From Minutocellus sp. GHC0000111 (lineage: Eukaryota): a stretch of 64,000 nucleotides of DNA. The position numbers were made by a program, and so were the translations under genes. Shown here piece by piece: positions 5,081 to 27,440 of the stretch. The number at the start of each line of letters is the position of its first letter. The stretch's first letter is position 1. The notes beneath the pieces are model-generated. The model had not been told where the DNA came from. It searched no databases and worked only from the letters and a program-made list of their open reading frames with translations. Location of the stretch: the NCBI GenBank assembly GCA_977018835.1, contig OZ361257.1:2356001-2420000 (forward strand), given 5' to 3'.

Positions 5081-5754
5081 GGTTCTGGATGGGATTACTA
5101 CTATGCGATTGTATTATTTATGAGGGTTATGATCAAGCAAGAGAGAACTGATATGATCACTGCTCACACCCTACCCGAGCACCCGCAACGCCATTTTCGT
5201 TTTTGGAAAGCCTCAATATGAAGGCTTATGTGTTCGATGTCGTTGTTGGAAGTTATAGATGCAAGTCATCTAAAAAGCGGCAATTTTTAAGAGGGCGCTG
5301 TCCATAACTTTTAGGAAGCCCCCAAAAAGCGTGTTTTGTGCCGTTTTTTCTTCGCACCATCGCCAAAGTTAGCACTCCAACGTGACAATGGGCTCCTCAT
5401 CGAAGGCCGCCGCTCTCCACAGTGGCGAAGAGTCATCGACGTTCCTTTCAGCATCAAGTCGGAAATCCCTCCAGGAACACTTGGTTCAGAGGAACTTCGA
5501 TGAATCAACTCTCCCTCAGAAACATGACAGTCGACGTGCACATCATCGTCGGATCGACCGAAATTAGTCTCGGCCGACGCATAACCAGCATTGGTGGTGC
5601 TGGTGGGAAGATATCTTGAAGTTTTGCTGTTGGGAGGTAAGGGGATATTTGTTTGGGGTGTTTTTGCACGTCTCCCTCATTTGGGGTTCTTTTTGTAAGG
5701 TTCTCATCGAAAAGCGCATCTTGCGCCAGAGCCGACACAAAGCAAAAAACAACC

Positions 5755-8283
5755 ATGGAAACATCACGTGCTAACGCCAAGGAGGCAATCCTCTCACTCT
5801 TGCTCTCATTCCCAGACGACGTCAGATGTACTTACTACACTATTGATGAGCTTGTCCGTATCTTGGTGCGCGGTGGCGTGTCGCCGAGCTTAGAGATCTC
5901 TCTTGTTCGATCATCTCTTCAACACGTCCCAACACGACACGAGGTCAATGTCCAACGACGACGTCCAGAGAAAATATCAGGCCTTGACGTTGCAAAGCCC
6001 TTCTACCGCTTCTCCAGAACAGCCGACAACGCCAGCCCACGCTCTCAACGCAATGGCAAGCGATCACTGCCGACCACACCTGAAAATTACTTCCAGGACG
6101 ATGAAAAGCATGGGCCCCATCTCAACGCGACACTGAAATATTATTCCGACAAGAATTCTTCGGGCGGTCGGTCATCTACTCCCACCGCCAACGCTACCGA
6201 TCGTCCCAACATCACCGGCGTGCAGCTCAACGGCAAAAGAATTGTGGTTGAGATGAAGCAGCTGTGTGACTTCGTGCAGAGTCTCCACCGATCGTGCGGC
6301 AATCTGTGTCTCTCGGCCGAGCCAGTTCGGCGTGGATTCGGCGTTACATTTGAATGGCGATGCGACAGATGCAACCAACCTTTTTCTTTTTGCACTTGGA
6401 TCGGCCAGAGGTCAGAAGTTGTGTGCCCCGGCAGAAAGCATTCTAGAAGTCAGGCTGGAATGAACTTGGAGCTGATGGAGGCAGCGGAAGATGAGGCCAT
6501 GCACGCAAGTCGCTTCATGAATTTCTGCACGAAGGCCGACATCGTCCATCCGACCGAAAAGAATGCCCGACAGGTGGAAAAGAAATGCAGAGCAGCGGCT
6601 ATTGAAGCAGCTGATGAAATCATTGACGAGAACAGGGCAAAAGCATGTGCCGCTAGCAGCAAGACTGTTGAGTTTGAACAAGGCGGCGAGATGCACACGG
6701 CGGCGGTGGTTGCGGTGGCCCAAGACGGCAGCGCCCTCAAACGCGACTACGGCCATTGCTACACTGGCTCTGCTGCAGCGGTGTTTGCCGTAGACAAGGA
6801 AACTGGCCTTGTTGTTGACAAGGGAATCTCTCAGGCAAGCTGCCACTGTTGCGTGAGAGCCTGCAATGCAAGATTGAGGGAGAGGCGGGAAGCCGGCAAT
6901 CCAATAACGCCGAGTGAGCTCAAAAACATGAGCAAGGATGAGATACTGGCCCTGTACGACCATGATGGCTTCTGCTATCGCAACTCTTCCTACTCCCCCG
7001 GTGTGGCAGAGGAGCATCTGGCCGAGAATGTTGGACGGAATCTTCTGGTCGACGATGAAGGAAGCGTGCAGGCGTGTCCTCTTTTCGTTGAGAAGCACGT
7101 TGCCGATGGCGATAGCAAAGGCATTACTAGGGCAGCAGCCGCTCAGGAAGACATAGTAGGTGATGAGTTGGCTTCTGGTGTTGAGCTTTGCCGTGACTTT
7201 AATCATCTGAGCAATTCAATTGACTCAGGCTTTCGAAAAGTTTGCAAAGGAGTTGAAAATTTTAATGCCATCCCCCGACCACGCATCAATCGGATGAAAC
7301 AGGACATTTCGAAGATTACTGATCGGTACAAGCACAGCGTTCTCGATCAGCCCGATGGTGCTGTGTCCGAGGAGGAAAAACAAAGTCATCTGGCCCTCCT
7401 TCAGAAAGAACTCCAGTCCGTCGTTCGTCACCAATGTGGCATTCACACTTTTTGCACCACCAACACGTGTGATTGGATTCGCCTCAGCATTGCTCATCCT
7501 GATTGGAGTGATGGCAAGCTCGATGAGGAATGGAGCTCGGGGAATCAATTCGATGGCGACATATTGGAGATTAGTGACGACACGATTCGCAAGATGACGC
7601 TTGAAATAACCAAGAGAATCAACAAGAATACTGCCGACTCCAACTGCAAGAAGGAATCTACCACCGGCGTCGAACAGCTCAACGGGATGGTGACGAAGTT
7701 CACGATGGGGAAAAGGCCGAATTTGACTGCTTCAGACGCCTACCCAAATGCAACAAGTAGAGCCGCTGGCCACAAGTCACTGGGTACGGAATTCAATGAG
7801 CGAGTTCTTGGAAAGTTGGGATCGAGGGATTCTCCTACCCGAAAAGATGGATTCGATGCAATTGACCGGAAGCTCGAGGGCGACCTTGCGCGTAAGCGCA
7901 CCGATGAGTACAAAAAGAGCAAGAGCGACAGCAAGCGCCTTCGAGCAGCCTTGCGAAACAGAAGCGAGAAAGACGACAAGGACTATGCGTACAAGAAGAA
8001 CAGGGCCCTAGCTGCTGGTAAGGCGAAACCAGCAAAGCCTGGCCGCAAGAAGAAGATTGACCAGCAGTGTCAGAAATGCAAGCAGCTTGGCCACACTCGG
8101 GCTGAATGTCAATGCGACGATGCTGACGACGTTGTCGTTTACGCCGGAAAGAAGCGCAGAAGCCCAGGCAGCAACAAGAAATCTGCAAGAAATAATAAGA
8201 AAGCTAAGACAAACTTCGGTGTATCGGCAAATGATGTTAGCTCTTGGATGCCGGCGATACTGAGAGAAAATGGCAGCTTGTAA
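5755..8283 (+). CDS. Kolobok-type DDE transposase with N-terminal Cys cluster and C-terminal CCHC zinc knuckle
   Basis: Motifs AQDGSALKR (D1), VADGDSKG (D2), CRDFNH, TTGVEQLNG (E); RRGFG..CDRC; CQKCKQLGHTRAEC; Lys-rich NLS-like tail; ATG at 5755. Confidence 0.85.
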   Translation: METSRANAKEAILSLLLSFPDDVRCTYYTIDELVRILVRGGVSPSLEISLVRSSLQHVPTRHEVNVQRRRPEKISGLDVAKPFYRFSRTADNASPRSQRNGKRSLPTTPENYFQDDEKHGPHLNATLKYYSDKNSSGGRSSTPTANATDRPNITGVQLNGKRIVVEMKQLCDFVQSLHRSCGNLCLSAEPVRRGFGVTFEWRCDRCNQPFSFCTWIGQRSEVVCPGRKHSRSQAGMNLELMEAAEDEAMHASRFMNFCTKADIVHPTEKNARQVEKKCRAAAIEAADEIIDENRAKACAASSKTVEFEQGGEMHTAAVVAVAQDGSALKRDYGHCYTGSAAAVFAVDKETGLVVDKGISQASCHCCVRACNARLRERREAGNPITPSELKNMSKDEILALYDHDGFCYRNSSYSPGVAEEHLAENVGRNLLVDDEGSVQACPLFVEKHVADGDSKGITRAAAAQEDIVGDELASGVELCRDFNHLSNSIDSGFRKVCKGVENFNAIPRPRINRMKQDISKITDRYKHSVLDQPDGAVSEEEKQSHLALLQKELQSVVRHQCGIHTFCTTNTCDWIRLSIAHPDWSDGKLDEEWSSGNQFDGDILEISDDTIRKMTLEITKRINKNTADSNCKKESTTGVEQLNGMVTKFTMGKRPNLTASDAYPNATSRAAGHKSLGTEFNERVLGKLGSRDSPTRKDGFDAIDRKLEGDLARKRTDEYKKSKSDSKRLRAALRNRSEKDDKDYAYKKNRALAAGKAKPAKPGRKKKIDQQCQKCKQLGHTRAECQCDDADDVVVYAGKKRRSPGSNKKSARNNKKAKTNFGVSANDVSSWMPAILRENGSL

Positions 8284-8387
8284 ACACGTGTAAAATATTT
8301 TATCACTGTAAATAAAAATGGATTTATTGTGTGCTGTTACTCACGTGCTACGCACATTCTTGTTATCTACATGTGTTGAGGTAATGA

Positions 8388-9617
8388 TTATGCATTTTCC
8401 TCTTCTTCTTCCTCTTCATCTTGATGACCAGGGATGAATCCAACATATCGTTCACCTTTATCATTTGGATAAATGAACCTAATGCAAAAGACTAGACAGG
8501 TTGGCAAGGGCTTCCGATCAAGCCAACCTCTCACATGATACACCTCAGTTGCATAGTACCAATACAGCATGTTCCTCTTCAAATTATTTGCCATGGCTTC
8601 GACTGGCATGGTGGTTGCGTAGTATTTGTCAGCGATATCCTCCAGGTCCTCCTCCGTCGGCACCAGCATTTCTTCGCAGACGCATTTCTGAAAGAAGAGT
8701 GTGCCGTACATTGAGCAGCTTCGGTTGGCGGCAGTGCAGCAAGCAGGGGGTATTGGCGGCCTCTCTCTGGTCTCGTCCCAATTACCGAATGTGTCTGCCT
8801 CCGGCGCTGCCGTCGGATCATCGTCGGCTTCCTCACAAACGGCCGCAACAAGAGCATCCGTGTCCGATCTGATCGCTGCTGATGGCCCACCATCTACCTG
8901 CAGAAGTTGGCCCATTCCAACAATATCAAAATCAACTAGTCCAATCCCAGCAGTAGAGTGTATGTCATCATATGGAGCCACATGCCATCGGTGGAACTTT
9001 GTCAATTTGATCACATGGCCCTGTTGTAGACTTCGGGCCTTTTCGGTAATTGTCAGGGCAACACGAGCGACGATAAGCTTTCCGCTTCCATCAAGCAAAG
9101 TAAGCGATGTGGTGTTGAAAGGTCGGCCGTGCGCAGCAAGAGCCGATCCAATATCGATCCGTTTCCCATGAAGTTGAAATATAGGGAAGAATTCAGGTCC
9201 GGCGTCAAACATGGGATCTTGCAATTGATCGACGATGCCGACCGTCAGCCTCAACTTCACATCAGCCACGGACAGGTTGGTAACTACGAGGCCGGGCCGC
9301 TCAGCAGCGACATCAATATCATCCCGAACATGATACTTATCAGCGCGAGCCTCGACTGCTTTGACAAGATGTTGAAGTGCATGGCCGACGCCGGGATTGT
9401 TCCATAATTCTCGTCCTTGTCCGTTCGGGTCGTTCTCCAACGTGACGGCGAGGCCCTCCAGTATCTCGGTAACAGCGTCTTTCGCTTTGTCCTCCGCCTT
9501 CTCTTTCTTCTTGTCAACAGGCAAAATCGGGCGACCGGAGTTATCTGTCTTGAGTTTCCGCAACCGCGTATCTGCGTTGTGGGCCGGGCCGGCACTATTA
9601 TCAGCGCTGCGCTTCAT
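8388..9617 (-). CDS. KolX-like accessory protein (C-terminal P2X7 ballast-like domain; central RPA70N-like OB fold)
   Basis: C-terminal NNLKRNMLYWYY..RKPLPTCLVFCIRFIYP..GERYVGF matches the KolX/P2X7-ballast pattern and is preceded by CC/CxC; lies inside the TIRs convergent to the transposase. Confidence 0.75.
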   Translation of the reverse strand: MKRSADNSAGPAHNADTRLRKLKTDNSGRPILPVDKKKEKAEDKAKDAVTEILEGLAVTLENDPNGQGRELWNNPGVGHALQHLVKAVEARADKYHVRDDIDVAAERPGLVVTNLSVADVKLRLTVGIVDQLQDPMFDAGPEFFPIFQLHGKRIDIGSALAAHGRPFNTTSLTLLDGSGKLIVARVALTITEKARSLQQGHVIKLTKFHRWHVAPYDDIHSTAGIGLVDFDIVGMGQLLQVDGGPSAAIRSDTDALVAAVCEEADDDPTAAPEADTFGNWDETRERPPIPPACCTAANRSCSMYGTLFFQKCVCEEMLVPTEEDLEDIADKYYATTMPVEAMANNLKRNMLYWYYATEVYHVRGWLDRKPLPTCLVFCIRFIYPNDKGERYVGFIPGHQDEEEEEEENA

Positions 9618-10266
9618 CGTAATGAAGAGGGGGCAGAGCGGCGATTCTCATGGTGGGGTCGAGTTTTTGTCATGCTTCGCTCGTCATAAGAAATAAGAAT
9701 AAGGGGGATTAAAACGGGGAAAATTATGGACAGCGCCCTCTTAACACAAATGACGAAGATCGTCAACTTTAACAAAGAGGCCAGGCGTATAACTCAACAA
9801 ATAACAATGAACTCAGCATCACTAGCATAGTTCCATCTTAGGATACGTATTTAGCTAGCGGAATTCTTCGAGCAGTAGCTGTTAGTAAAATGCCTTGACT
9901 ATTTATTTCTAGACGCTGCTACTATCCACGAACACGTGGGTGCCGGCGGTGGCGCATCATCGCAAACATTGTAGACGAACATTCCTAATGGGCTTCATTG
10001 AGGGGCCAAGTGTGCACAACCAATCAAGCACCTGGCAATATTTAGCTAGCACTTCCATAAGCGAATATTTGGAAATAATTGGTTGCCTTCGACATTATAT
10101 GCAATAATGATTATTTTACAGATAACTTTCTCCGACTCCCACGTGCCGGGCGTTAATACAATACTAACAATACATTAGAACATGGCAATTCAAATGAAAA
10201 CTTCCATACTAGCTGTAACTAGAAAGGCGGTGCACCAGTGAAACGGTACAAAGAAAGATGGGGAGC

Positions 10267-11812
10267 TCAGGGCCAACCAGGCATCTTATCAAAAAGAGCG
10301 GCGAAAGTGCCATCCCCGAGGCTAGAGGGCAGGAAATTTAGGACCATGAGAGTCACAAAGAGACCAAGAAATAGTTTCTTTTCGCTATCTGCGGCATTTA
10401 ACACCACCGATGGATAGTAAGCCTCTGCCAGCCTCATAGAGTGAATGGAATTGTCGTCTTTGAAATTAGAGAACATCTCAAAAAGATTCGAATAGGGCGT
10501 GCTGGTGTCGGCATCAGAAATGGATGAAAGTGGCATCGACTTGAGCGCACTTTCATTTTGCTCAAGGAAGGCATCATACGTGTGAAAGGCGTGGCTTTCA
10601 ATCATTTGGGCAAAACGATAGGCAAGGCTTGGCGAAAGAAACCACAGGTGAACGATTGTGAGATGGGCAAACAATGCAGCATGTTCTGCAATGAATCTAG
10701 CCGTCCAGGTCTGACCTCCACCGAGTTGTTCGATCATCCTCTGTCTTCTGAATTTGGATAGCTCCTGGTGGGCATGGGCCACCCTCAAATCTTCAGAAGG
10801 GCGCCAAAGGCCAAATGATTCATAAAGATTCAACATAGAAAGAAAGGAGAGATATGGTGCCCGACCAATCTTCTCCATTATGCATAGGCGTTGAATGGCG
10901 CTTCCCGAGTTCAACTTATCGTCAGGCTGCTTATAGACAAGGTCGATGAGAGGACAAAGCAAGTGGTAAGGTGATCGAAGAACGAGAGGCTCTTTTATCA
11001 CACCGAGCGATGCTTTCAAGATCCCAAGATGGAAGTTTCAGCGAGTTCAACTTGGCTCTGAGATCTACTGTCTCGTCGCCCTTGCTTGTCGTTGCCTTGT
11101 TCCTTCCCAACATGGAATCGAGATTGCGAACAAATTGATTTGTCGCAAGAGCGAAGAAATTGGGCGGAGGAGTGTAGTACGGAGCAGGATATTCTTCATC
11201 CCTGGCAAACCAAAGAAACAGCAAAAACAGAATGATATGGATCTCTTGAGATGAGGATGGAGAGATTTCGAGGAAAAATAATGCAAAAGCACACAGCTCT
11301 CGCGGAACCAAAAACAAAACTTCCAGCTGTGCTGCGGTCAACTGACGATCGCCAGTGGTCACATACCCATAGCTTCCTCTAGCATTTGGATCAGTACTCG
11401 TTATGGCGGGGGTTTCTGTTTCGTCGTCCTTGCTTCCGTCGTCTACTTTGCTCTTCACCTTGTTATCGATTCCTCCCGCCGACGAGCCCGAAAACTCTTT
11501 GTACTCCTCATACTGAGCCTTCAGATCATCCATCTTCTGGTCCAGATCGGCCTCAAAGCCATGGAGAAAGACACCTGATTCAGCAATCCCATCTGAACTT
11601 GCTTCTTCTCCTTCGATATTAGCCTGACCGCCCTGCTTCTCGTTCTGAGGAGCAAGTGCCGTCAAGATCGAGAAGCGAATCTTTCCATCACTGTGCTGGT
11701 CAGACCGCCAGCAGGCTTTGCCGTTGCTGGCGGAAGTGGCCGCAGGTACGAGGAATGCAGCCGACGGCGACGATAAATAGAGAAGGCAGACCGACCTAAT
11801 ACCAAGATGCAT
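10267..11812 (-). pseudogene. Inverted copy of the PTOX/alternative-oxidase-like gene (frameshifted, degenerate diiron site)
   Basis: Mirror of 19237..20782 with the same intron and frameshift. Confidence 0.65.
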
Positions 11813-12217
11813 GGTTGGTTGCTGGTGGGGCGGCAGGTATCTCATTTTGCCATGCAGAAGATCTGAGATTGAAAGATCTTCACCTTTTTCTTCCTTTCTT
11901 CCTTTTTTCCCCTTTTGGTAGCTCCATCGATCGGCGAACAGGCAGGAATCAATGCGCTTAGTTGTTTGTAAAGCTCTACCGGTACCAGTCCTATGCGCTT
12001 CGGGTAGACCGAGCTATTTAACCGCTAGCTGGGTCAACAAATACGCAAGCGGCGTTATGAGTAAATACTTCCGGCTTTCTTTGCTTGATCTACTTTCTTC
12101 ACTTCCCATCGCCTCATGTCAATCTGATAGAAACGTCTTTGTAGAAAATTGTCATGCATACGTAGATCTACTATAGATTAGTAAGCGCTAATGCGATCCT
12201 TTTACAATTTGATCAAA

Positions 12218-12516
12218 TTACAGCAAAAGCCCTTTATTCACATCCTCCAAATTTCGTAGCAACGCTTCCTGTCTCTTCAGCCGTTTGTCCAATGCGGCCT
12301 TGGTGTGTTCCACAACTTCATTTGGCGCCTTCTCTAGGAAGTCGGATGTTTCTAGTTTGCAAGAGAGGATGTTGATACTCTTTCGGTTTCTTTCCATCTG
12401 CTTCTCGATCAAGTCCCGCCTTTCCTTGAGCTTCTGTGTCTTCGACTTGGGAGTGGTGGAAGAAGAACGTCGGACCTTGTTCGACTTCTCTTCGAATCCC
12501 TTGACATTGATCAACG
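12218..12516 (-). pseudogene. 3' fragment of rtcB (coiled-coil tail only), truncated at a rearrangement junction
   Basis: Reverse complement of 18533..18831 (LINVKGFEEK...NKGLLL). Confidence 0.85.
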
Positions 12517-14185
12517 CAGCAGCAATTTCTGGCTGACCGACGAGGACTACAATCGAATTCGCCGGGGCATCAAAAAGGACGTTCGGAAAGCTCGCGCTTG
12601 TGCCATCCTCATCAACGGGGATGGCGGCAACATCCCACCGCCGTCTCTGAACGAGGACGAAACGACCCTCCGCGGCATCGAGCATCTCCAGAGCCGAGAG
12701 GTTCTCCAGCAGCTGGTCCACCTCAAGGATGGCGCCATCGAGGCCGTCTTCCGGGAGCAGGAGCGCCAGGCCACGTTGGGAAGGGCCATCGACGGCCGGG
12801 CCATTGCCAAGGTCTACATGGTCCACGCCAGGCAGGACGCCCTCGCGCGTGCCGCCTCCGACGAGGCCTTTGTGCTTGCCGATAGAATTTCAACCACTAC
12901 CACTACCACTGACACTCTTACCAAGCAGCAGTACCTTGAACTTCTAAAGAAATCGATCGCCATCGACTTGGACACAAGCCAAGCACACACTGCTGCTGAC
13001 AACACTGCTACAACAATCGAGGAAGGATCAGCAAGGCCAACACCCTCAAGAGGCGCCGGTGGCATTCACGCCCCCAGCGCAGTCAATCCTCTGCAGCAGC
13101 AACAGGAAGACGATCAAGATGCACCAAATTATTCGCTGGGCTCTTGGCTCAATCACCACGACAGCCTGACGCTCGGTGGAACGAGAGGTGCCACGAAAGG
13201 TCCCCATCGCCGTCGTTCTTCCGAATGCACTGATACTAGCTAGTATGGTAACAGAGCAGTACTGTGATGCCAGATCCATCGATACCTTTTTACTTAAAAA
13301 AAATGAGCTCATGGCTCCGCTCCCAGTCTCCTGTCGTGCGAACAACAATTGGAATATTTGATATAAATATATATAAAAAGAATCTACGTAAAGGTTTATC
13401 GAGTTGTTATCTTGAAGAGATAGGGACAATATATGTGTGTTAGTCCCAAAATGCGCACTGTCCCAGTTCGCGAACTGGGATCCCAGTTTGCGAACTAGGA
13501 TTTATTTATCCCAGTTTGGAAACTGGGATCATAGGCACAATCTCAGTTTGCAAACTTGGATCAATCGAGAAATAATGAAAATTTAGCATGGATGATATCG
13601 CCTTTGCTTCTCCTCGCTTCATTTTTTCATAGTGAAGCAACACAGCCCAAACCTGGTCCAGACGTCCAGACGACATTAGTGCCGGAGCTGATACTCAATA
13701 AATTGGCATTAGCTGATACAAAATACATATAGTGAAAAATAATAATATCTAGCTAGCTGCTTCTGGCAAATATAAGTCATGAACTGTACATGCATCTGTG
13801 CTATGCCGGCATCATGTTGCTACTGTACCAGTACATGTAGCTTGCAAATTCAAGATATGATGCACAGTGCAACTTGTGTTGTAGATAGATCTACCAGTAC
13901 ATAATCATTGTGCATGAGCCAACACCGGCAGTTACCATTCTGACACTTGCCGAGAATGCCAGTTTCCAAACTGGTATTCATTTTTGTTCCAGTTCGCGAA
14001 CTCGTCTGGTTCCCAAATTCGGATTGGCGTGTTTATCTCAGTTTCCATTCTGGTAGTATCAGTGCGCAAACTGAGATCCTAGTTTGGGAACTGGGGCCCA
14101 GTGCGCAAACTGGGATAAATGAATCTCAGTTCGCAAACTGGGATCCCAGTTCGCGAACTGGGACAGTGCGCATTTTGGGACTAAC
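12516..14185. repeat. Inverted duplication of 3301..4980 (5'-truncated copy of the 4244..5080 gene plus MITE)
   Basis: Reverse-complement identity with a few SNPs and a 9-bp deletion (HARQARQD to HARQD); homology stops exactly at the MITE terminus 14185. Confidence 0.92.
13439..14185. mobile_element. MITE copy 2 (opposite orientation to copy 1)
   Basis: Same TIRs GTTAGTCCC...GGGACTAAC; TA/TG-rich flanks. Confidence 0.9.
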
Positions 14186-14219
14186 ATATATTTATTTCCT
14201 CCAATCCACCACCACCAAG

Positions 14220-15112
14220 ATGGTCTTCGTCAAGGTTCAAAAGTCCAAGGCGTACTTCAGCCGGTACCAGGTCAAGTTCCGCCGCCGCCGCGAGGGCCGC
14301 ACGGACTACCGCCAGCGCAAGCGCCTCGTCTGCCAGGCCAAGAACAAGTACCAGAGCCCCAAGTACCGCCTCATCGTCCGCTTCACCAACACCCAGGTCA
14401 TCTGCCAGATCGCCTACTCCCTCATCGACGGCGACCGCATCCTGTGCCAGGCCAACTCCAAGGAGCTCCCCCGCTACGGCCTCAAGGTCGGCCTCAAGAA
14501 CTACGCCGCCGCCTCCTCCAGAAGGTCGGCCTCGACGACGTCTACGAGGGCAACACCGAGATCGACGGCGAGGTCGTCTCCTGCGAGGAGGGAAAGAAGA
14601 CCTACTACGTCGACGAGGTCGACGAGGACAAGCGCCCCTTCCGCGCCCTCCTCGACGTCGGCTGCAAGGCCACCACCACCGGATGCCGCATCTTCGGCGC
14701 CCTCAAGGGGGCCGCCGACGGAGGCCTCGACATCCCCCACTCCGAGAAGCGCTTCCCCGGCTACGACCGCGACGCCAAGGAGTACGACGCCGACATGCAC
14801 CGCGAGCGCATCTTCGGCGGCCACGTCGGCGAGTACATGGAGTACCTCGAGGAGGAGGACAACCAGAAGTACCAGGAGTGCTTCGCCTCCTACATCGCCA
14901 ACGACGCCGACGCCGACGGCCTCGAGGAGCTCTACGAGTCGGTCCACGAGGCCATCCGGGAGGATCCCAGCCCCAGCGCCAAGAAGGACTTCAGCCCCGA
15001 CAAGTCCTACAAGCGCAAGGCCAAGCTCACCCTCGAGGAGCGCAAGGCTCGCGTCCAGGCCAAGAAGGACGCGAAAATTGCGGAATTGGAGGCCGTCTCC
15101 GATGACGAGTAA
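14220..15112 (+). pseudogene. RPL5: 60S ribosomal protein L5 (uL18), frameshifted
   Basis: [30 protein letters not shown]...GLKNYAAA, then frame change to LLQKVGL...[23 protein letters not shown]...; the conserved YxTGLLxARR segment is missing near 14514. Confidence 0.9.
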
Positions 15113-15213
15113 ATTATTACTACAGTAGTAAAAATAAATTTGCTTATCCAACGTCAACCTCGATACTATCTTGAGCAGTATGTTATAATTTCCTCCACTA
15201 GTATTATAGTAGC

Positions 15214-16680: not shown

Positions 16681-17196
16681 GTTGCTTCGTTGATGCTTTA
16701 ATGCTTGATTTTTTTCTATGTTGGCGTCGTGCGAGGCTCGGACGAGGCTGTGCATGTGGACTGTGTACATGCGCTGGTCCATAAGAGGTACTAGCTAGTA
16801 TGTTAGTTCTCGTTGCGCCGTCGGTGGCTCTGCCTGCGGTCTGCTCTGCGTCTGCGTATCTTTTGACAGTCGAGTGAGTCCAGAAAGATACGAGGGTGTT
16901 CAGGACAGCAATCAGTGAACCAAGCAGGAATTAGCTGCTTGCTGGTTTGAATGGTTGATGAAAGGCATTCATATCGCATGATTCATTGCTGTGCCTCTCG
17001 TTGGTGCTAAATATTAGCGCAGTAGAGCCTGTACTGGCTAGAGCTTAGGTGGCGGAGGCGATCTTTTCTTGACACGCCTCCACGGAGAGGATGGTAACCA
17101 GATATCTGATCTCCCCAGTGACAACATGTGACCGAGGCGATGAATGCACTTCCACGATTTTGCACTTCACTTCTCCAACAACAACTAATTAGGAAT

Positions 17197-18831
17197 ATGA
17201 AGTTGTCGAATGCTCGTGCATCAATCCTGCCGGCCTTGCTAACCATCGCTGTCGGCACTACAGGCGCTGATGCCTTTGTCCTCTCTCGCGAAACGCCAAG
17301 GCACTTCAGTTCGCAGATTCGCAGCAGCAGCGCGGGAGGAGACGAAGATTCGCCTACTAGCGAGTTTCCAAGGATTATAGAGACAAAGGGCGTGCCAATC
17401 TATTTGTACACGGATGACATTGAGTTCGAAGCCATCGAGCAGCTCAGGGTGCTTGCCGAGAGTCCCGTCCCAGTTGATTACGTATCGGCAATGCCAGGTG
17501 CTCATCTCGGAAAAGGAGTTACCATAGGCTCGGTATTTGCTTCAGAGAAGTACGTATGTCCGAATGCCGTGGGCGTGGATATTGGATGCGGAATGGCGGC
17601 TGTGCCCATCGATGGGCTGTACAAGAACCAACTGACAAACGATCAAATGAACGAGATCCAACGGCTCATCAAGGAACAAATCCCAACTGGATTTGAGCAG
17701 CATCGCAAGACGCTGGAGGGGACCCGCGAGGTGTTGACGCAGATCACCGATGAGGTGGAACCAACTCAGTACCTCAAGGACCAACTTTTGGAGCCTCGTG
17801 TCGCCGATCAGCTGGGCACCCTTGGAGGTGGCAATCACTTTCTCGAGGTGGTGTACGAGGAAGGTACCGAGCAGGTTTGGATCATGTTGCATTCAGGAAG
17901 TCGCAACATTGGCAATCGTGTCGCAACGCGGTACGACCAGGTGGCCAAAAGTTTGCTTTTGAGTCAGGGCGTGGACACCCAACCTCTTCGAGGTATTCAC
18001 TACATGCCTATCGACTCGCAAGAGGGACAGAATTATCTACGCGACATGGAGTGGTGTCAGCGCTACGCCTTTCATAATCGCCAGGCGATGCAAAATATCA
18101 TTGAGACGATTGTGGAAAGGGTCACCGGCAAACAGGCCAACGTTGCGAAAGGGACCAACATCCATCACAACTATTGTGCCTGCGAAGATTGCGGTGATGG
18201 CAGGCGACTGTGGATAACCCGCAAGGGCGCGACGTCCGCAAAGGCAGGAGAGTACGGTATTATTCCCGGATCGATGGGTACTGGCAGCTACATCACCCGG
18301 GGCCGAGGAAATCTCTTGAGCTGGAATTCATCATCCCACGGTGCAGGCCGGAGAATGTCGCGAACGAAGGCAAAGGCAGAGATCGCTCAGAGTGATTTTG
18401 AAAACGTCATGAAAGGGATTGTTTGCGACACCACGCCGGCCGTCAAAGACGAAGCTCCGCAAGCATACAAGGATCTCAATGTCGTTATGAAGAATCAAGA
18501 GTCTCTCACTGATGTCGTTCACCACCTTCTCCCGTTGATCAATGTCAAGGGATTCGAAGAGAAGTCGAACAAGGTCCGACGTTCTTCTTCCACCACTCCC
18601 AAGTCGAAGACACAGAAGCTCAAGGAAAGGCGGGACTTGATCGAGAAGCAGATGGAAAGAAACCGAAAGAGTATCAACATCCTCTCTTGCAAACTAGAAA
18701 CATCCGACTTCCTAGAGAAGGCGCCAAATGAAGTTGTGGAACACACCAAGGCCGCATTGGACAAACGGCTGAAGAGACAGGAAGCGTTGCTACGAAATTT
18801 GGAGGATGTGAATAAAGGGCTTTTGCTGTAA
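17197..18831 (+). CDS. rtcB: Bacterial-type RNA ligase RtcB, plastid-targeted, with C-terminal ValRS-like coiled-coil arm
   Basis: VGVDIGCGM, GTLGGGNHF, HSGSR, HHNY, PGSMG, SHGAGR, DEAPQAYK; signal peptide ending ADA-F; tail KLETSDFLEKAPNEVVE. Confidence 0.92.
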   Translation: MKLSNARASILPALLTIAVGTTGADAFVLSRETPRHFSSQIRSSSAGGDEDSPTSEFPRIIETKGVPIYLYTDDIEFEAIEQLRVLAESPVPVDYVSAMPGAHLGKGVTIGSVFASEKYVCPNAVGVDIGCGMAAVPIDGLYKNQLTNDQMNEIQRLIKEQIPTGFEQHRKTLEGTREVLTQITDEVEPTQYLKDQLLEPRVADQLGTLGGGNHFLEVVYEEGTEQVWIMLHSGSRNIGNRVATRYDQVAKSLLLSQGVDTQPLRGIHYMPIDSQEGQNYLRDMEWCQRYAFHNRQAMQNIIETIVERVTGKQANVAKGTNIHHNYCACEDCGDGRRLWITRKGATSAKAGEYGIIPGSMGTGSYITRGRGNLLSWNSSSHGAGRRMSRTKAKAEIAQSDFENVMKGIVCDTTPAVKDEAPQAYKDLNVVMKNQESLTDVVHHLLPLINVKGFEEKSNKVRRSSSTTPKSKTQKLKERRDLIEKQMERNRKSINILSCKLETSDFLEKAPNEVVEHTKAALDKRLKRQEALLRNLEDVNKGLLL

Positions 18832-19236
18832 TTTGATCAAATTGTAAAAGGATCGCATTAGCGCTTACTAATCTATAGTAGATCTACGTATGCATGACAA
18901 TTTTCTACAAAGACGTTTCTATCAGATTGACATGAGGCGATGGGAAGTGAAGAAAGTAGATCAAGCAAAGAAAGCCGGAAGTATTTACTCATAACGCCGC
19001 TTGCGTATTTGTTGACCCAGCTAGCGGTTAAATAGCTCGGTCTACCCGAAGCGCATAGGACTGGTACCGGTAGAGCTTTACAAACAACTAAGCGCATTGA
19101 TTCCTGCCTGTTCGCCGATCGATGGAGCTACCAAAAGGGGAAAAAAGGAAGAAAGGAAGAAAAAGGTGAAGATCTTTCAATCTCAGATCTTCTGCATGGC
19201 AAAATGAGATACCTGCCGCCCCACCAGCAACCAACC

Positions 19237-20782
19237 ATGCATCTTGGTATTAGGTCGGTCTGCCTTCTCTATTTATCGTCGCCGTCGGCTGCATTCCTCG
19301 TACCTGCGGCCACTTCCGCCAGCAACGGCAAAGCCTGCTGGCGGTCTGACCAGCACAGTGATGGAAAGATTCGCTTCTCGATCTTGACGGCACTTGCTCC
19401 TCAGAACGAGAAGCAGGGCGGTCAGGCTAATATCGAAGGAGAAGAAGCAAGTTCAGATGGGATTGCTGAATCAGGTGTCTTTCTCCATGGCTTTGAGGCC
19501 GATCTGGACCAGAAGATGGATGATCTGAAGGCTCAGTATGAGGAGTACAAAGAGTTTTCGGGCTCGTCGGCGGGAGGAATCGATAACAAGGTGAAGAGCA
19601 AAGTAGACGACGGAAGCAAGGACGACGAAACAGAAACCCCCGCCATAACGAGTACTGATCCAAATGCTAGAGGAAGCTATGGGTATGTGACCACTGGCGA
19701 TCGTCAGTTGACCGCAGCACAGCTGGAAGTTTTGTTTTTGGTTCCGCGAGAGCTGTGTGCTTTTGCATTATTTTTCCTCGAAATCTCTCCATCCTCATCT
19801 CAAGAGATCCATATCATTCTGTTTTTGCTGTTTCTTTGGTTTGCCAGGGATGAAGAATATCCTGCTCCGTACTACACTCCTCCGCCCAATTTCTTCGCTC
19901 TTGCGACAAATCAATTTGTTCGCAATCTCGATTCCATGTTGGGAAGGAACAAGGCAACGACAAGCAAGGGCGACGAGACAGTAGATCTCAGAGCCAAGTT
20001 GAACTCGCTGAAACTTCCATCTTGGGATCTTGAAAGCATCGCTCGGTGTGATAAAAGAGCCTCTCGTTCTTCGATCACCTTACCACTTGCTTTGTCCTCT
20101 CATCGACCTTGTCTATAAGCAGCCTGACGATAAGTTGAACTCGGGAAGCGCCATTCAACGCCTATGCATAATGGAGAAGATTGGTCGGGCACCATATCTC
20201 TCCTTTCTTTCTATGTTGAATCTTTATGAATCATTTGGCCTTTGGCGCCCTTCTGAAGATTTGAGGGTGGCCCATGCCCACCAGGAGCTATCCAAATTCA
20301 GAAGACAGAGGATGATCGAACAACTCGGTGGAGGTCAGACCTGGACGGCTAGATTCATTGCAGAACATGCTGCATTGTTTGCCCATCTCACAATCGTTCA
20401 CCTGTGGTTTCTTTCGCCAAGCCTTGCCTATCGTTTTGCCCAAATGATTGAAAGCCACGCCTTTCACACGTATGATGCCTTCCTTGAGCAAAATGAAAGT
20501 GCGCTCAAGTCGATGCCACTTTCATCCATTTCTGATGCCGACACCAGCACGCCCTATTCGAATCTTTTTGAGATGTTCTCTAATTTCAAAGACGACAATT
20601 CCATTCACTCTATGAGGCTGGCAGAGGCTTACTATCCATCGGTGGTGTTAAATGCCGCAGATAGCGAAAAGAAACTATTTCTTGGTCTCTTTGTGACTCT
20701 CATGGTCCTAAATTTCCTGCCCTCTAGCCTCGGGGATGGCACTTTCGCCGCTCTTTTTGATAAGATGCCTGGTTGGCCCTGA
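19237..20782 (+). pseudogene. Plastid-targeted PTOX/alternative-oxidase-like protein; intron 19683..19847; frameshift near 20045; degenerate diiron ligands
   Basis: Presequence SAA-FLVP; EKIGRAPYLSFLSMLNLYESFGLWR, SPSLAYRFAQMIESHAFHTY; gtatgt..ccag intron joins GSYG/DEEY. Confidence 0.7.
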
Positions 20783-21431
20783 GCTCCCCATCTTTCTTTG
20801 TACCGTTTCACTGGTGCACCGCCTTTCTAGTTACAGCTAGTATGGAAGTTTTCATTTGAATTGCCATGTTCTAATGTATTGTTAGTATTGTATTAACGCC
20901 CGGCACGTGGGAGTCGGAGAAAGTTATCTGTAAAATAATCATTATTGCATATAATGTCGAAGGCAACCAATTATTTCCAAATATTCGCTTATGGAAGTGC
21001 TAGCTAAATATTGCCAGGTGCTTGATTGGTTGTGCACACTTGGCCCCTCAATGAAGCCCATTAGGAATGTTCGTCTACAATGTTTGCGATGATGCGCCAC
21101 CGCCGGCACCCACGTGTTCGTGGATAGTAGCAGCGTCTAGAAATAAATAGTCAAGGCATTTTACTAACAGCTACTGCTCGAAGAATTCCGCTAGCTAAAT
21201 ACGTATCCTAAGATGGAACTATGCTAGTGATGCTGAGTTCATTGTTATTTGTTGAGTTATACGCCTGGCCTCTTTGTTAAAGTCGACGATCTTCGTCATT
21301 TGTGTTAAGAGGGCGCTGTCCATAATTTTCCCCGTTTTAATCCCCCTTATTCTTATTTCTTATGACGAGCGAAGCATGACAAAAACTCGACCCCACCATG
21401 AGAATCGCCGCTCTGCCCCCTCTTCATTACG

Positions 21432-22661
21432 ATGAAGCGCAGCGCTGATAATAGTGCCGGCCCGGCCCACAACGCAGATACGCGGTTGCGGAAACTCAAG
21501 ACAGATAACTCCGGTCGCCCGATTTTGCCTGTTGACAAGAAGAAAGAGAAGGCGGAGGACAAAGCGAAAGACGCCGTTACCGAGATACTGGAGGGCCTCG
21601 CCGTCACGTTGGAGAACGACCCGAACGGACAAGGACGAGAATTATGGAACAATCCCGGCGTCGGCCATGCACTTCAACATCTTGTCAAAGCAGTCGAGGC
21701 TCGCGCTGATAAGTATCATGTTCGGGATGATATTGATGTCGCTGCTGAGCGGCCCGGCCTCGTAGTTACCAACCTGTCCGTGGCTGATGTGAAGTTGAGG
21801 CTGACGGTCGGCATCGTCGATCAATTGCAAGATCCCATGTTTGACGCCGGACCTGAATTCTTCCCTATATTTCAACTTCATGGGAAACGGATCGATATTG
21901 GATCGGCTCTTGCTGCGCACGGCCGACCTTTCAACACCACATCGCTTACTTTGCTTGATGGAAGCGGAAAGCTTATCGTCGCTCGTGTTGCCCTGACAAT
22001 TACCGAAAAGGCCCGAAGTCTACAACAGGGCCATGTGATCAAATTGACAAAGTTCCACCGATGGCATGTGGCTCCATATGATGACATACACTCTACTGCT
22101 GGGATTGGACTAGTTGATTTTGATATTGTTGGAATGGGCCAACTTCTGCAGGTAGATGGTGGGCCATCAGCAGCGATCAGATCGGACACGGATGCTCTTG
22201 TTGCGGCCGTTTGTGAGGAAGCCGACGATGATCCGACGGCAGCGCCGGAGGCAGACACATTCGGTAATTGGGACGAGACCAGAGAGAGGCCGCCAATACC
22301 CCCTGCTTGCTGCACTGCCGCCAACCGAAGCTGCTCAATGTACGGCACACTCTTCTTTCAGAAATGCGTCTGCGAAGAAATGCTGGTGCCGACGGAGGAG
22401 GACCTGGAGGATATCGCTGACAAATACTACGCAACCACCATGCCAGTCGAAGCCATGGCAAATAATTTGAAGAGGAACATGCTGTATTGGTACTATGCAA
22501 CTGAGGTGTATCATGTGAGAGGTTGGCTTGATCGGAAGCCCTTGCCAACCTGTCTAGTCTTTTGCATTAGGTTCATTTATCCAAATGATAAAGGTGAACG
22601 ATATGTTGGATTCATCCCTGGTCATCAAGATGAAGAGGAAGAAGAAGAGGAAAATGCATAA
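21432..22661 (+). CDS. KolX-like protein, copy 2
   Basis: Same 409-aa translation as 8388..9617. Confidence 0.75.
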   Translation: MKRSADNSAGPAHNADTRLRKLKTDNSGRPILPVDKKKEKAEDKAKDAVTEILEGLAVTLENDPNGQGRELWNNPGVGHALQHLVKAVEARADKYHVRDDIDVAAERPGLVVTNLSVADVKLRLTVGIVDQLQDPMFDAGPEFFPIFQLHGKRIDIGSALAAHGRPFNTTSLTLLDGSGKLIVARVALTITEKARSLQQGHVIKLTKFHRWHVAPYDDIHSTAGIGLVDFDIVGMGQLLQVDGGPSAAIRSDTDALVAAVCEEADDDPTAAPEADTFGNWDETRERPPIPPACCTAANRSCSMYGTLFFQKCVCEEMLVPTEEDLEDIADKYYATTMPVEAMANNLKRNMLYWYYATEVYHVRGWLDRKPLPTCLVFCIRFIYPNDKGERYVGFIPGHQDEEEEEEENA

Positions 22662-22765
22662 TCATTACCTCAACACATGTAGATAACAAGAATGTGCGTA
22701 GCACGTGAGTAACAGCACACAATAAATCCATTTTTATTTACAGTGATAAAATATTTTACACGTGT

Positions 22766-25292
22766 TTACAAGCTGCCATTTTCTCTCAGTATCGCCGGCA
22801 TCCAAGAGCTAACATCATTTGCCGATACACCGAAGTTTGTCTTAGCTTTCTTATTATTTCTTGCAGATTTCTTGTTGCTGCCTGGGCTTCTGCGCTTCTT
22901 TCCGGCGTAAACGACAACGTCGTCAGCATCGTCGCATTGACATTCAGCCCGAGTGTGGCCAAGCTGCTTGCATTTCTGACACTGCTGGTCAATCTTCTTC
23001 TTGCGGCCAGGCTTTGCTGGTTTCGCCTTACCAGCAGCTAGGGCCCTGTTCTTCTTGTACACATAGTCCTTGTCGTCTTTCTCGCTTCTGTTTCGCAAGG
23101 CTGCTCGAAGGCGCTTGCTGTCGCTCTTGCTCTTTTTGTACTCATCGGTGCGCTTACGCGCAAGGTCGCCCTCGAGCTTCCGGTCAATTGCATCGAATCC
23201 ATCTTTTCGGGTAGGAGAATCCCTCGATCCCAACTTTCCAAGAACTCGCTCATTGAATTCCGTACCCAGTGACTTGTGGCCAGCGGCTCTACTTGTTGCA
23301 TTTGGGTAGGCGTCTGAAGCAGTCAAATTCGGCCTTTTCCCCATCGTGAACTTCGTCACCATCCCGTTGAGCTGTTCGACGCCGGTGGTAGATTCCTTCT
23401 TGCAGTTGGAGTCGGCAGTATTCTTGTTGATTCTCTTGGTTATTTCAAGCGTCATCTTGCGAATCGTGTCGTCACTAATCTCCAATATGTCGCCATCGAA
23501 TTGATTCCCCGAGCTCCATTCCTCATCGAGCTTGCCATCACTCCAATCAGGATGAGCAATGCTGAGGCGAATCCAATCACACGTGTTGGTGGTGCAAAAA
23601 GTGTGAATGCCACATTGGTGACGAACGACGGACTGGAGTTCTTTCTGAAGGAGGGCCAGATGACTTTGTTTTTCCTCCTCGGACACAGCACCATCGGGCT
23701 GATCGAGAACGCTGTGCTTGTACCGATCAGTAATCTTCGAAATGTCCTGTTTCATCCGATTGATGCGTGGTCGGGGGATGGCATTAAAATTTTCAACTCC
23801 TTTGCAAACTTTTCGAAAGCCTGAGTCAATTGAATTGCTCAGATGATTAAAGTCACGGCAAAGCTCAACACCAGAAGCCAACTCATCACCTACTATGTCT
23901 TCCTGAGCGGCTGCTGCCCTAGTAATGCCTTTGCTATCGCCATCGGCAACGTGCTTCTCAACGAAAAGAGGACACGCCTGCACGCTTCCTTCATCGTCGA
24001 CCAGAAGATTCCGTCCAACATTCTCGGCCAGATGCTCCTCTGCCACACCGGGGGAGTAGGAAGAGTTGCGATAGCAGAAGCCATCATGGTCGTACAGGGC
24101 CAGTATCTCATCCTTGCTCATGTTTTTGAGCTCACTCGGCGTTATTGGATTGCCGGCTTCCCGCCTCTCCCTCAATCTTGCATTGCAGGCTCTCACGCAA
24201 CAGTGGCAGCTTGCCTGAGAGATTCCCTTGTCAACAACAAGGCCAGTTTCCTTGTCTACGGCAAACACCGCTGCAGCAGAGCCAGTGTAGCAATGGCCGT
24301 AGTCGCGTTTGAGGGCGCTGCCGTCTTGGGCCACCGCAACCACCGCCGCCGTGTGCATCTCGCCGCCTTGTTCAAACTCAACAGTCTTGCTGCTAGCGGC
24401 ACATGCTTTTGCCCTGTTCTCGTCAATGATTTCATCAGCTGCTTCAATAGCCGCTGCTCTGCATTTCTTTTCCACCTGTCGGGCATTCTTTTCGGTCGGA
24501 TGGACGATGTCGGCCTTCGTGCAGAAATTCATGAAGCGACTTGCGTGCATGGCCTCATCTTCCGCTGCCTCCATCAGCTCCAAGTTCATTCCAGCCTGAC
24601 TTCTAGAATGCTTTCTGCCGGGGCACACAACTTCTGACCTCTGGCCGATCCAAGTGCAAAAAGAAAAAGGTTGGTTGCATCTGTCGCATCGCCATTCAAA
24701 TGTAACGCCGAATCCACGCCGAACTGGCTCGGCCGAGAGACACAGATTGCCGCACGATCGGTGGAGACTCTGCACGAAGTCACACAGCTGCTTCATCTCA
24801 ACCACAATTCTTTTGCCGTTGAGCTGCACGCCGGTGATGTTGGGACGATCGGTAGCGTTGGCGGTGGGAGTAGATGACCGACCGCCCGAAGAATTCTTGT
24901 CGGAATAATATTTCAGTGTCGCGTTGAGATGGGGCCCATGCTTTTCATCGTCCTGGAAGTAATTTCAGGTGTGGTCGGCAGTGATAGCTTGCCATTGCGT
25001 TGAGAGCGTGGGCTGGCGTTGTCGGCTGTTCTGGAGAAGCGGTAGAAGGGCTTTGCAACGTCAAGGCCTGATATTTTCTCTGGACGTCGTCGTTGGACAT
25101 TGACCTCGTGTCGTGTTGGGACGTGTGAAGAGATGATCGAACAAGAGAGATCTCTAAGCTCGGCGACACGCCACCGCGCACCAAGATACGGACAAGCTCA
25201 TCAATAGTGTAGTAAGTACATCTGACGTCGTCTGGGAATGAGAGCAAGAGTGAGAGGATTGCCTCCTTGGCGTTAGCACGTGATGTTTCCAT
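22766..25292 (-). pseudogene. Kolobok transposase, copy 2, with two 1-bp deletions near the 5' end
   Basis: Mirror of 5755..8283; single-base deletions at ~25126 and ~24963 (possibly read errors). Confidence 0.75.
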
Positions 25293-27336
25293 GGTTGTTT
25301 TTTGCTTTGTGTCGGCTCTGGCGCAAGATGCGCTTTTCGATGAGAACCTTACAAAAAGAACCCCAAATGAGGGAGACGTTCGGCGTGGATTCGGCGTTAC
25401 ATTTGAATGGCGATGCGATAGATGCAACCAACCATTTTCTTTTTGCACTTGGATCGGCCAGAGGTCAGAAGTTGTGTGCCCCGGCAGAAAGCATTCTAGA
25501 AGTCAGGCTGGAATGAACTTGGAGCTGATGGAGGCAGCGGAAGATGAGGCCATGCACGCAAGTCGCTTCATGAATTTCTGCACGAAGGCCGACATCGTCC
25601 ATCCGACCGAAAAGAATGCCCGACAGGTGGAAAAGAAATGCAGAGCAGCGGCTATTGAAGCAGCTGATGAAATCATTGACGAGAATAGGGCAAGAGCACA
25701 TGCAGCTAGCAGCAAGACTGTTGAGTTTGAACAAGGCGGCGAGATGCACACGGCGGCGGTGGTTGCGGTGGCCCAAGACGGCAGCGCCCTCAAACGCGAC
25801 TACGGCCATTGCTACACTGGCTCTGCTGCAGCGGTGTTTGCCGTAGACAAGGAAACTGGCCTTGTTGTTGACAAGGGAATCTCTCAGGCAAGCTGCCACT
25901 GTTGCGTGAGAGCCTGCAATGCAAGATTGAGGGAGAGGCGGGAAGCCGGCAATCCAATAACGCCGAGTGAGCTCAAAAACATGAGCAAGGATGAGATACT
26001 GGCCCTGTACGACCATGATGGCTTCTGCTATCGCAACTCTTCCTACTCCCCCGGTGTGGCAGAGGAGCATCTGGCCGAGAATGTTGGACGGAATCTTCTG
26101 GTCGACGATGAAGGAAGCGTGCAGGCGTGTCCTCTTTTCGTTGAGAAGCACGTTGCCGATGGCGATAGCAAAGGCATTACTAGGGCAGCAGCCGCTCAGG
26201 AAGACATAGTAGGTGATGAGTTGGCTTCTGGTGTTGAGCTTTGCCGTGACTTTAATCATCTGAGCAATTCAATTGACTCAGGCTTTCGAAAAGTATGCAA
26301 AGGAGTTGAAAATTTTAATGCCATCCCCCGACCACGCATCAATCGGATGAAACAGGACATTTCGAAGATTACTGATCGGTACAAGCACAGCGTTCTCGAT
26401 CAGCCCGATGGTGCTGTGTCCGAGGAGGAAAAACAAAGTCATCTGGCCCTCCTTCAGAAAGAACTCCAGTCCGTCGTTCGTCACCAATGTGGCATTCACA
26501 CTTTTTGCACCACCAACACGTGTGATTGGATTCGCCTCAGCATTGCTCATCCTGATTGGAGTGATGGCAAGCTCGATGAGGAATGGAGCTCGGGGAATCA
26601 ATTCGATGGCGACATATTGGAGATTAGTGACGACACGATTCGCAAGATGACGCTTGAAATAACCAAGAGAATCAACAAGAATACTGCCGACTCCAACTGC
26701 AAGAAGGAATCTACCACCGGCGTCGAACAGCTCAACGGGATGGTGACGAAGTTCACGATGGGGAAAAGGCCGAATTTGACTGCTTCAGACGCCTACCCAA
26801 ATGCAACAAGTAGAGCCGCTGGCCACAAGTCACTGGGTACGGAATTCAATGAGCGAGTTCTTGGAAAGTTGGGATCGAGGGATTCTCCTACCCGAAAAGA
26901 TGGATTCGATGCAATTGACCGGAAGCTCGAGGGCGACCTTGCGCGTAAGCGCACCGATGAGTACAAAAAGAGCAAGAGCGACAGCAAGCGCCTTCGAGCA
27001 GCCTTGCGAAACAGAAGCGAGAAAGACGACAAGGACTATGTGTACAAGAAGAACAGGGCCCTAGCTGCTGGTAAGGCGAAACCAGCAAAGCCTGGCCGCA
27101 AGAAGAAGATTGACCAGCAGTGTCAGAAATGCAAGCAGCTTGGCCACACTCGGGCTGAATGTCAATGCGACGATGCTGACGACGTTGTCGTTTACGCCGG
27201 AAAGAAGCGCAGAAGCCCAGGCAGCAACAAGAAATCTGCAAGAAATAATAAGAAAGCTAAGACAAACTTCGGTGTATCGGCAAATGATGTTAGCTCTTGG
27301 ATGCCGGCGATACTGAGAGAAAATGGCAGCTTGTAA
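25291..27336 (+). CDS. Chimeric N-truncated Kolobok transposase created by the fold-back junction
   Basis: Antisense-derived MVVFCF...EGDV fused in frame to RRGFGVTFEW...; full DDE core and CCHC retained; expression unknown. Confidence 0.5.
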   Translation: MVVFCFVSALAQDALFDENLTKRTPNEGDVRRGFGVTFEWRCDRCNQPFSFCTWIGQRSEVVCPGRKHSRSQAGMNLELMEAAEDEAMHASRFMNFCTKADIVHPTEKNARQVEKKCRAAAIEAADEIIDENRARAHAASSKTVEFEQGGEMHTAAVVAVAQDGSALKRDYGHCYTGSAAAVFAVDKETGLVVDKGISQASCHCCVRACNARLRERREAGNPITPSELKNMSKDEILALYDHDGFCYRNSSYSPGVAEEHLAENVGRNLLVDDEGSVQACPLFVEKHVADGDSKGITRAAAAQEDIVGDELASGVELCRDFNHLSNSIDSGFRKVCKGVENFNAIPRPRINRMKQDISKITDRYKHSVLDQPDGAVSEEEKQSHLALLQKELQSVVRHQCGIHTFCTTNTCDWIRLSIAHPDWSDGKLDEEWSSGNQFDGDILEISDDTIRKMTLEITKRINKNTADSNCKKESTTGVEQLNGMVTKFTMGKRPNLTASDAYPNATSRAAGHKSLGTEFNERVLGKLGSRDSPTRKDGFDAIDRKLEGDLARKRTDEYKKSKSDSKRLRAALRNRSEKDDKDYVYKKNRALAAGKAKPAKPGRKKKIDQQCQKCKQLGHTRAECQCDDADDVVVYAGKKRRSPGSNKKSARNNKKAKTNFGVSANDVSSWMPAILRENGSL

Positions 27337-27440
27337 ACACGTGTAAAATATTTTATCACTGTAAATAAAAATGGATTTATTGTGTGCTGTTACTCACGTG
27401 CTACGCACATTCTTGTTATCTACATGTGTTGAGGTAATGA

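Follow-up and report, generated by a model that had tools for sequence, protein, structure and literature searches.

TpA-directed transitions with a TAY preference on both strands of a young Kolobok DNA transposon family

The stretch analysed here (the window; 64,000 nucleotides, positions 2,356,001 to 2,420,000 of contig OZ361257.1 from Minutocellus sp. GHC0000111, numbered from its first letter) carries three copies of a Kolobok-type DNA transposon, and the changes from TA to CA or TG found in this transposon family are the subject of this report. Copy 1 is full length (5291-9740, forward strand, 4450 bp), with 17-bp terminal inverted repeats at 5291-5307 and 9724-9740 (ends GA..TC) and a TTAA target-site duplication at 5287-5290 and 9741-9744. 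The empty site was found in contigs of sequencing runs X8 and X7, which join 5286 to 9741 with 4 shared letters, and contigs from other insertions of the element diverge just beyond the TTAA. The transposase gene (5755-8283, forward strand) is open in copy 1 and encodes a DDE transposase of 842 residues (PF20700, E=1.6e-20). Among 154 relatives, the catalytic residues were conserved in those aligned at each position (D324 in 69/73, D451 and D453 in 87/87, E640 in 67/73), as was the D481-x-x-H484 signature (D481 in 70/80, H484 in 81/82), and both zinc-finger motifs were kept (H559, H564, C567 and C572; C363, C366, H403 and C407). Relatives of the transposase outside the clade were 24-34% identical. 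A second open reading frame (ORF2; 8388-9617, reverse strand, 409 residues) lies tail-to-tail with the transposase gene.

Kolobok elements are described, in the accessible text of PMC9587614, as having a TTAA duplication, RR..YY ends, a DDE transposase with a C/DxxH signature and two zinc fingers, one placed between that signature and the catalytic E and the other, in some lineages, a CCHC finger following the first D; they are known from diatoms, and the second frame of the Kol0 lineage is KolX, which is P2X7 cytoplasmic ballast-like. The element in the window matches Kol0 in its TTAA duplication, GA..TC ends, DDE transposase with DxxH, two zinc fingers and second frame, and by its ends, TTAA and DDE motifs it is a member of the Kolobok superfamily. 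ORF2 is possibly KolX-like, but its resemblance to KolX is weak: the ORF2 of copy 1 gave no Pfam match and no match among PDB sequences or in the protein atlas, and P2RX7_C matched 4 of 9 aligned ORF2 relatives weakly, the best at E=0.052, below the cut-off.

Copy 2 (21309-25379, reverse strand) is 5'-truncated and has two 1-bp deletions in the 5' part of its transposase. It lies within 18533-25379, an inverted segmental duplicate of 5668-12516 (~6.8 kb, flanking gene included) that differs from the original by 4 substitutions, none of them TpA-type, and the two 1-bp deletions. Copies 1 and 2 are one insertion duplicated, not independent insertions, and as parts of a single duplicate they lose the standing of separate witnesses that an earlier note on this DNA had given them. 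Copy 3 (25378-28794, forward strand) lacks the first 1034 bp and has its own 3' flank, with the terminal repeat followed by TTAA at 28795-28798. Copies 2 and 3 are joined head-to-head with a 2-bp overlap (25378-25379), and 21309-28794 forms a palindrome with arms of 3.4 kb and a spacer of 0.65 kb, the 5' losses being 377 bp in copy 2 and 1034 bp in copy 3.

The family is young and recently spread: runs X8 and X7 retain the empty site, one contig of 2331 bases spanning 7390-9714 has 2 differences from copy 1, and in run X8 the element has ~35x the contig depth of the flank, a depth that does not give copy number. A 215-bp deletion (7034-7248) that removes the DGD motif was seen in about half of the family depth (runs X8, X7 and X1), and five database proteins stop at the deletion point, which marks a successful non-autonomous subfamily. 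Sequence data of 7 studies, from marine and sponge metagenomes and metatranscriptomes, contain the element; run X8 also has the flanking genes, so the alga, rather than the sponge, is the likely carrier. No relative of the element was found in the metagenome contigs (0/47 stretches) or viral contigs (0/6) searched. The host is likely a diatom, to judge from an ORF2 relative 64% identical, which its source names Minutocellus polymorphus, and from the signal-like start of the product of the flanking alternative-oxidase-family gene described below.

Within the element, 12 substitutions and one 1-bp indel separate copy 1 from copy 3 over ~3.4 kb. The earlier note had observed that the same TpA steps appear mutated in opposite ways in different copies, and the bases that it quoted are all present. 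At codon 298 of the transposase, copies 1 and 2 read TGT (Cys; 6646-6648, with the TG at 6646-6647 matching 24403-24402 on the minus strand) and copy 3 reads CAT (His; 25699-25701, with the CA at 25699-25700). Two synonymous differences have CA in copies 1 and 2 and TA in copy 3, at 6366-6367 (25419-25420 in copy 3; in run X8 the two alleles have roughly the same depth) and at 6633-6634 (25686-25687; contigs break at 6632/6634 in several runs). All four TpA changes of the note lie in a TAT context when read on the strand of the A. Taken alone, the comparison of copies 1 and 3 was not above chance (4/9 transitions TpA-type; chance share 0.21, p=0.10); adding the other repeat pairs of the window gave 12/19 (p ~5e-4 at a share of 0.25, tallied by hand). 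The window comparison leaves the ancestor of codon 298 undecided, because TGT and CAT are each one step from CGT too, which is equally parsimonious, and a micro-inversion also fits, the CA allele being the reverse complement of gca-TG-tgc. Five of the copy 3 differences fall inside 19 bp (6633-6651), of which the variants at 6641 and 6651 were found only in copy 3. Run X9 has several alleles here, with four 48-base pieces over 6616-6663 carrying 0, 1, 2 and 3 differences; contigs break at 6646-6647 in the second read comparison.

For the family as a whole, the sample comprised 16 transposases from a cluster of 171 and 51 ORF2 proteins from a cluster of 113. Among recurrently variable codons, 26/28 in the transposase (chance share 0.18) and 18/28 in ORF2 (chance share 0.21) were TA>CA/TG changes, and singleton columns were mostly ordinary (TA-type in 18/52 and 10/46, respectively). 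Tyr-centred transposase codons gave 236 observations, with Tyr in 144, Cys in 60, His in 31 and Arg in 1, and no Ser, Phe, Asn or Asp. Of the 36 TA-type codons aligned with a relative at 89% identity (P0006), 29 have kept TA in that relative, 3 are derived and 4 encode another residue, which indicates that TA is the starting state. DNA contigs agreed: 25 of the 35 element differences listed from four runs were TA/CA/TG, at non-coding and synonymous places as well, as were 9/13 in the second read comparison, and both derived alleles (CA and TG) were present at 5525-6, 6139-40, 6265-6 and 6944-5. The flank at 9783-12500 had few differences, with 1 of the 5 listed being TA-type. The excess over other transitions was ~100-fold (0.227 versus 0.0022, as standing variation), and TpA-directed change on both strands, as the earlier note had proposed, is borne out by family proteins and DNA contigs alike.

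Some features of these data weigh on the other side. The proteins are distinct sequences only, possibly alleles of one locus across assemblies, so that the counts are non-independent and the p-values inflated; 34/52 singleton transposase columns are non-TA-type; the DNA allele differences listed are 40 of 183; and the difference at 6503 (A>G alone), which was counted as non-TA, is unlike the Tyr/Cys/His pattern that proteins have at this codon. An assembly or sequencing error in the repeat would account for the near identity of copy 2, with its two 1-bp deletions, to copy 1 plus flank, and for the variants at 6641 and 6651 that only copy 3 has, but short-read contigs from six runs belonging to five studies (one run maybe being the source of the window) show the same TA/CA/TG alleles, as do proteins from many long contigs, and we regard such an error as very nearly out of the question.

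Codon 298 itself was examined in 13 family sequences (11 database proteins plus copies 1 and 3), with Cys in 6, His in 6, Tyr in 1 and Arg in 0. Relatives at 53-89% identity have Tyr in 4/5 (P0006, P0007, P0023 and P0024) and His in P0005; of the further fragments, three at 86-99% have Cys and three at ~50% have Ala. Family and relatives together indicate that TAT is the ancestor, as the earlier note had it, although its argument that TAT is the simplest ancestor did not hold for the window alone. Cys and His are the family majority because the site is nearly saturated (12/13 sequences changed), so that a majority consensus would be wrong here, and the same applies to majority consensuses of such families at other saturated sites; the TpA enrichment, whose absence the note would have counted against itself, was present among the recurrent codons. 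Since both alleles are common, either allele of copies 1 and 3 could have been inherited or converted. The suggestion that the second catalytic motif, HVADGDS (7096-7116, forward strand), derives from a Tyr form was not sustained: the residue three before DGD was Tyr in 0/58 motif matches and His in 6 (matches from 57 of 154 related proteins), and His is common to all five close relatives. A Tyr to His change in this motif was rejected on those grounds.

Sequence context was counted over codons 1-500 as A>G on either strand. The count was confined to codons with the starting base in copy 1, and 15 with a derived base in that copy were excluded so as to avoid ascertainment. Changes were found at 71/291 TAY observations, Y being a pyrimidine (TAC 34/171, TAT 37/120), and at 5/172 TAR observations, R being a purine (TAA 4/64, TAG 1/108), with AAY at 3/601, AAR at 1/667 and C/G-A-N at 4/2937. 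Counted per site, 78/106 TAY half-sites had changed versus 7/49 TAR half-sites. Three heavily changed ORF2 copies gave TAY 43/81 and TAR 1/30, and the other 48 ORF2 database proteins gave, by subtraction, TAY 4/1465. A TAY preference implies that codons with purine-TA-pyrimidine show both derived residues and others only Cys, and the counts bear this out. CpG C>T stood at 2/1124 and CA>TA at 1/1258. These counts indicate that the target is 5'-TAY, without accompanying CpG decay.

The same counts bear on several other sources of the changes. CpG decay from CGT (Arg), a 2-bp micro-inversion between 3-bp arms and a CA/TG>TA change like repeat-induced point mutation (RIP), which in Neurospora and other ascomycetes makes TA from CA or TG, each fit the window-only comparison, and three copy 1 differences are indeed CG versus TG or CA (7988, 9474 and 9765). 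Across the family, however, codon 298 is Arg in none of the 13 sequences and Tyr in relatives, the CpG and CA>TA counts are next to nil, and the three-state pattern recurs at many codons without hairpin arms, so that we hold this group of explanations to be highly improbable. A CGT ancestor, 5-methylcytosine decay, micro-inversion and the fungal RIP direction were accordingly rejected for the family.

Error-prone gap filling by a polymerase-eta-like enzyme, in repair of transposon breaks or of silenced chromatin, would suit a cut-and-paste element, which invites gap repair, and a few AA>AG differences (several in copy 1, at 5731, 5742, 6270 and 6281) and one TA>TT (7242) are of the expected kind. 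The signature of polymerase eta is WA>WG (W being A or T) with many AA changes and transversions, and the AAY and AAR counts given above, against those at TAY, together with transversion-type residues in 0/92 changes at transposase Tyr codons, make it a poor candidate.

A further alternative keeps the DNA-level process and replaces the lesion by a modified base (T at RTA or A at TAY) that is mispaired or misrepaired. As TA is self-complementary, sequence cannot separate A>G at TAY from T>C at RTA, and the near-absolute specificity would suit a sequence-specific writer. Adenine methylation of the ApT-restricted kind would not fit the changes here, which affected TAC and TAT alike. Given also that the TAY preference of TadA-fold enzymes is already in print (accessible text of PMC10879117), we consider a modified base unlikely, while giving it more weight than the polymerase.

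Changes were not spread evenly along the element. The 5' zone (5291-7250), which takes in the promoter side and the first 500 codons, had TA>CA/TG in every examined copy and held 33 of the 35 element differences listed. Sixteen copies span codons 1-500, the first 1.5 kb of the gene, and each of them has between 3 and 16 changes. The half-site load fell from 165/726 (0.227) in codons 1-500 to 8/259 (0.031) in codons 501-842 and 0.023 in ORF2. In ORF2, 45/52 sequences were unchanged and 3/52 were heavily changed on both strands (25/56, 14/38 and 5/17; the copies changed over ORF2 are P0043, P0072 and P0080), one of these having 9 T>C and 16 A>G. The non-TA background was flat along the element (0.0053, 0.0045 and 0.0039 per residue), so the 5' zone owes its load to stronger targeting, and the idea that the 5' part is simply older was dropped. 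Coding-strand bias was mild: ten codons with TAY on both strands gave 59 A>G versus 35 T>C, in events that are non-independent. Such a bias, if it also holds in the DNA, would be in keeping with R-loop exposure.

The alleles assort almost freely: 233/457 site pairs failed the four-gamete test, against 278 +/- 15 in shuffles (minimum 233). Near-free assortment, with ordinary mutations nearly all singletons, favours changes made copy by copy after a burst. The count stands at the bottom of the shuffled range, which weighs on the other side and indicates that some alleles are inherited or converted. Carried further, this would mean that a few hypermutated masters acquired the 5' alleles a single time and that transposition and gene conversion later spread and mixed them, which would alter the timing of the mutator but not its existence, copies 1 and 3 then not having been changed independently. 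That both codon 298 alleles are common, that copies 1 and 3 have rare alleles such as 6783 G in common despite their differences in the 19-bp cluster, that the four-gamete count lies slightly under the shuffles and that relatives such as P0007 look mosaic all speak for it. Old masters should also share ordinary mutations, however, and codons 1-500 have one recurrent column that is truly non-TA (codon 176; codon 496, also flagged, is a TA site in copy 3). Half of the site pairs are incompatible with a tree, the ORF2 changes are private to single copies, and the duplicates at 3299-4980 and 12516-14187 already suggest that different changes were gained after duplication. We think a few masters improbable, at about the level of the polymerase or marginally above it. 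Sister subfamilies seem mosaic as well: P0007 is like this family over residues 92-145 and like P0005 elsewhere, and P0005, on a long contig that also bears this family, has His or Cys where P0023 has Tyr.

The element transposes as DNA, and a single copy can carry changes on both of its strands, which excludes reverse transcription and RNA editing and would imply more than one round of change. With Kolobok ends, TTAA and DDE motifs in place, the earlier claim of a DNA-level process acting on a DDE transposon, and not a reverse-transcription artefact, was upheld. A TadA/ADAT-fold deaminase would suit both the purity of the A>G changes and the preference for TAY; TadA-based base editors, which likewise make A>G changes, are most efficient at TAY (PMC10879117). 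We lean, with a little better than even confidence, towards a TadA/ADAT-type enzyme of the host, deaminating adenine in DNA, as the source of the TA changes of young Kolobok copies.

Such an enzyme would turn A into inosine, read as G, in inserted copies, and most changes would arise after insertion, copy by copy, over several cell generations. At the transposase promoter, silencing or a brief opening of the strands may recruit the enzyme to the 5' zone, such recruitment being our best guess at the cause of the hot first 2 kb. The few copies changed over ORF2 would belong to wider domains exposed to the mutator, as would the retroelement (42.9-51.4 kb) described below, and the process may serve host defence against mobile DNA. 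A fuller proposal, that diatoms have a natural TAY-reading TadA/ADAT-fold editor docked at the promoter end of new DNA transposon insertions, where it edits ~2 kb, with stripping of whole elements only in silenced domains, as a defence, is more speculative and we advance it tentatively. Other points tell against the deaminase. TadA-derived editors are engineered, guided and looser in context, and TadA7.10/8e can mutate A in any context (according to the accessible text of PMC10085711), whereas specificity here is near absolute, so the likeness is an analogy only. Copy 1 retains an open transposase, catalytic motifs included, and the family has many members, so that any protective effect stays hypothetical.

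Likeness to RIP lies in dinucleotide-specific transitions that affect both strands of mobile repeats and accumulate over rounds; the direction and the base are opposite. Repetition is not sufficient here, since the inverted duplicate of 6.8 kb, although near-identical to its original, is free of TpA differences, and ORF2 is untouched in most copies. In Bigelowiella natans, TpA>TpG/CpA hypermutation of integrated DNA of nucleocytoplasmic large DNA viruses and virophages has been described (Mettrop et al., bioRxiv 10.64898/2026.01.13.699255). The available sections of that preprint give a rate ~1000-fold above background in mutation-accumulation lines, find DDE and reverse-transcriptase domains over-represented among coding sequences poor in TpA, suggest that the process reaches transposons and propose an ADAT-type deaminase, with an ADAT2/3-like enzyme of the host as candidate. 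In Bigelowiella the changes are confined to foreign DNA and spare host genes. That system resembles the present one in making TpA>TpG/CpA changes on both strands, almost only transitions, in foreign or mobile DNA, and both are patchy (11/15 lines in Bigelowiella, 3/52 ORF2 copies here). It differs in that Bigelowiella is a rhizarian alga in which single-copy viral regions of 25-186 kb were followed by de novo observation, whereas here the host is likely a diatom and the target a multicopy 4.4-kb DNA transposon with a 2-kb 5' zone and a measured preference of TAY over TAR. The main text of Mettrop et al. does not contain 'diatom', 'flank' or 'trinucleotide', and its supplements may hold context data. 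Literature searches, which reached few subscription papers, found no report from a diatom, and only Mettrop et al. was relevant.

What the present case contributes is the event-level TAY specificity, the lack of CpG decay and the two-tier targeting in a young DNA transposon. In a young, still polymorphic transposon, direction, context and position can be measured from events and not from survivors, and a family with dozens of near-identical copies, hot towards the 5' end and cold towards the 3' end, makes a test bed. TAY provides a sharp substrate with which to look for the enzyme; an adenine deaminase acting naturally on DNA, if true, would be of interest to builders of base editors.

Supporting signs come from elsewhere in the window. 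A retroelement at 42942-51393 has split direct repeats (42942-43174 matching 50974-51210, and 50838-50974 matching 51257-51393), a layout that we take to be that of Ngaro/PAT-type tyrosine-recombinase elements. Within it, 47388-49697 is a frame like that of a reverse transcriptase (matched to RVT_1 clusters of the atlas at a score of 0.97, but not by Pfam), and of its 769 residues 2 are Tyr. Over 44001-50000, RTAY accounts for 0/47 TA steps, versus 158/459 and 161/436 in gene-rich parts, and CpG is not depleted. The RTAY and Tyr poverty of the retroelement is the end state of the same process.

An element of 750 bp resembling a miniature inverted-repeat transposable element, with repeated subterminal motifs, is present at 3299-4050 and 13438-14187, duplicated together with 930 bp of flank. 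Between the duplicates (3299-4980 and 12516-14187), 6/7 transitions are TA versus CA or TG, and each duplicate retains different TA steps; three of the six (4053, 4055 and 4057) lie in a short alternating tract just outside the element. Nested inverted duplications (3299-25379) meet at 12516, and may be due to transposon-driven rearrangement or to mis-assembly. The junction at 12516 fuses the 3' end of an RtcB gene (17122-18831) to part of the frame at 4244-5113. An alternative-oxidase-family gene (PF01786) is duplicated at 10267-11813 and 19236-20782, and its product begins with a signal-like stretch ending in SAAF, which resembles the plastid-targeting motif of diatoms.

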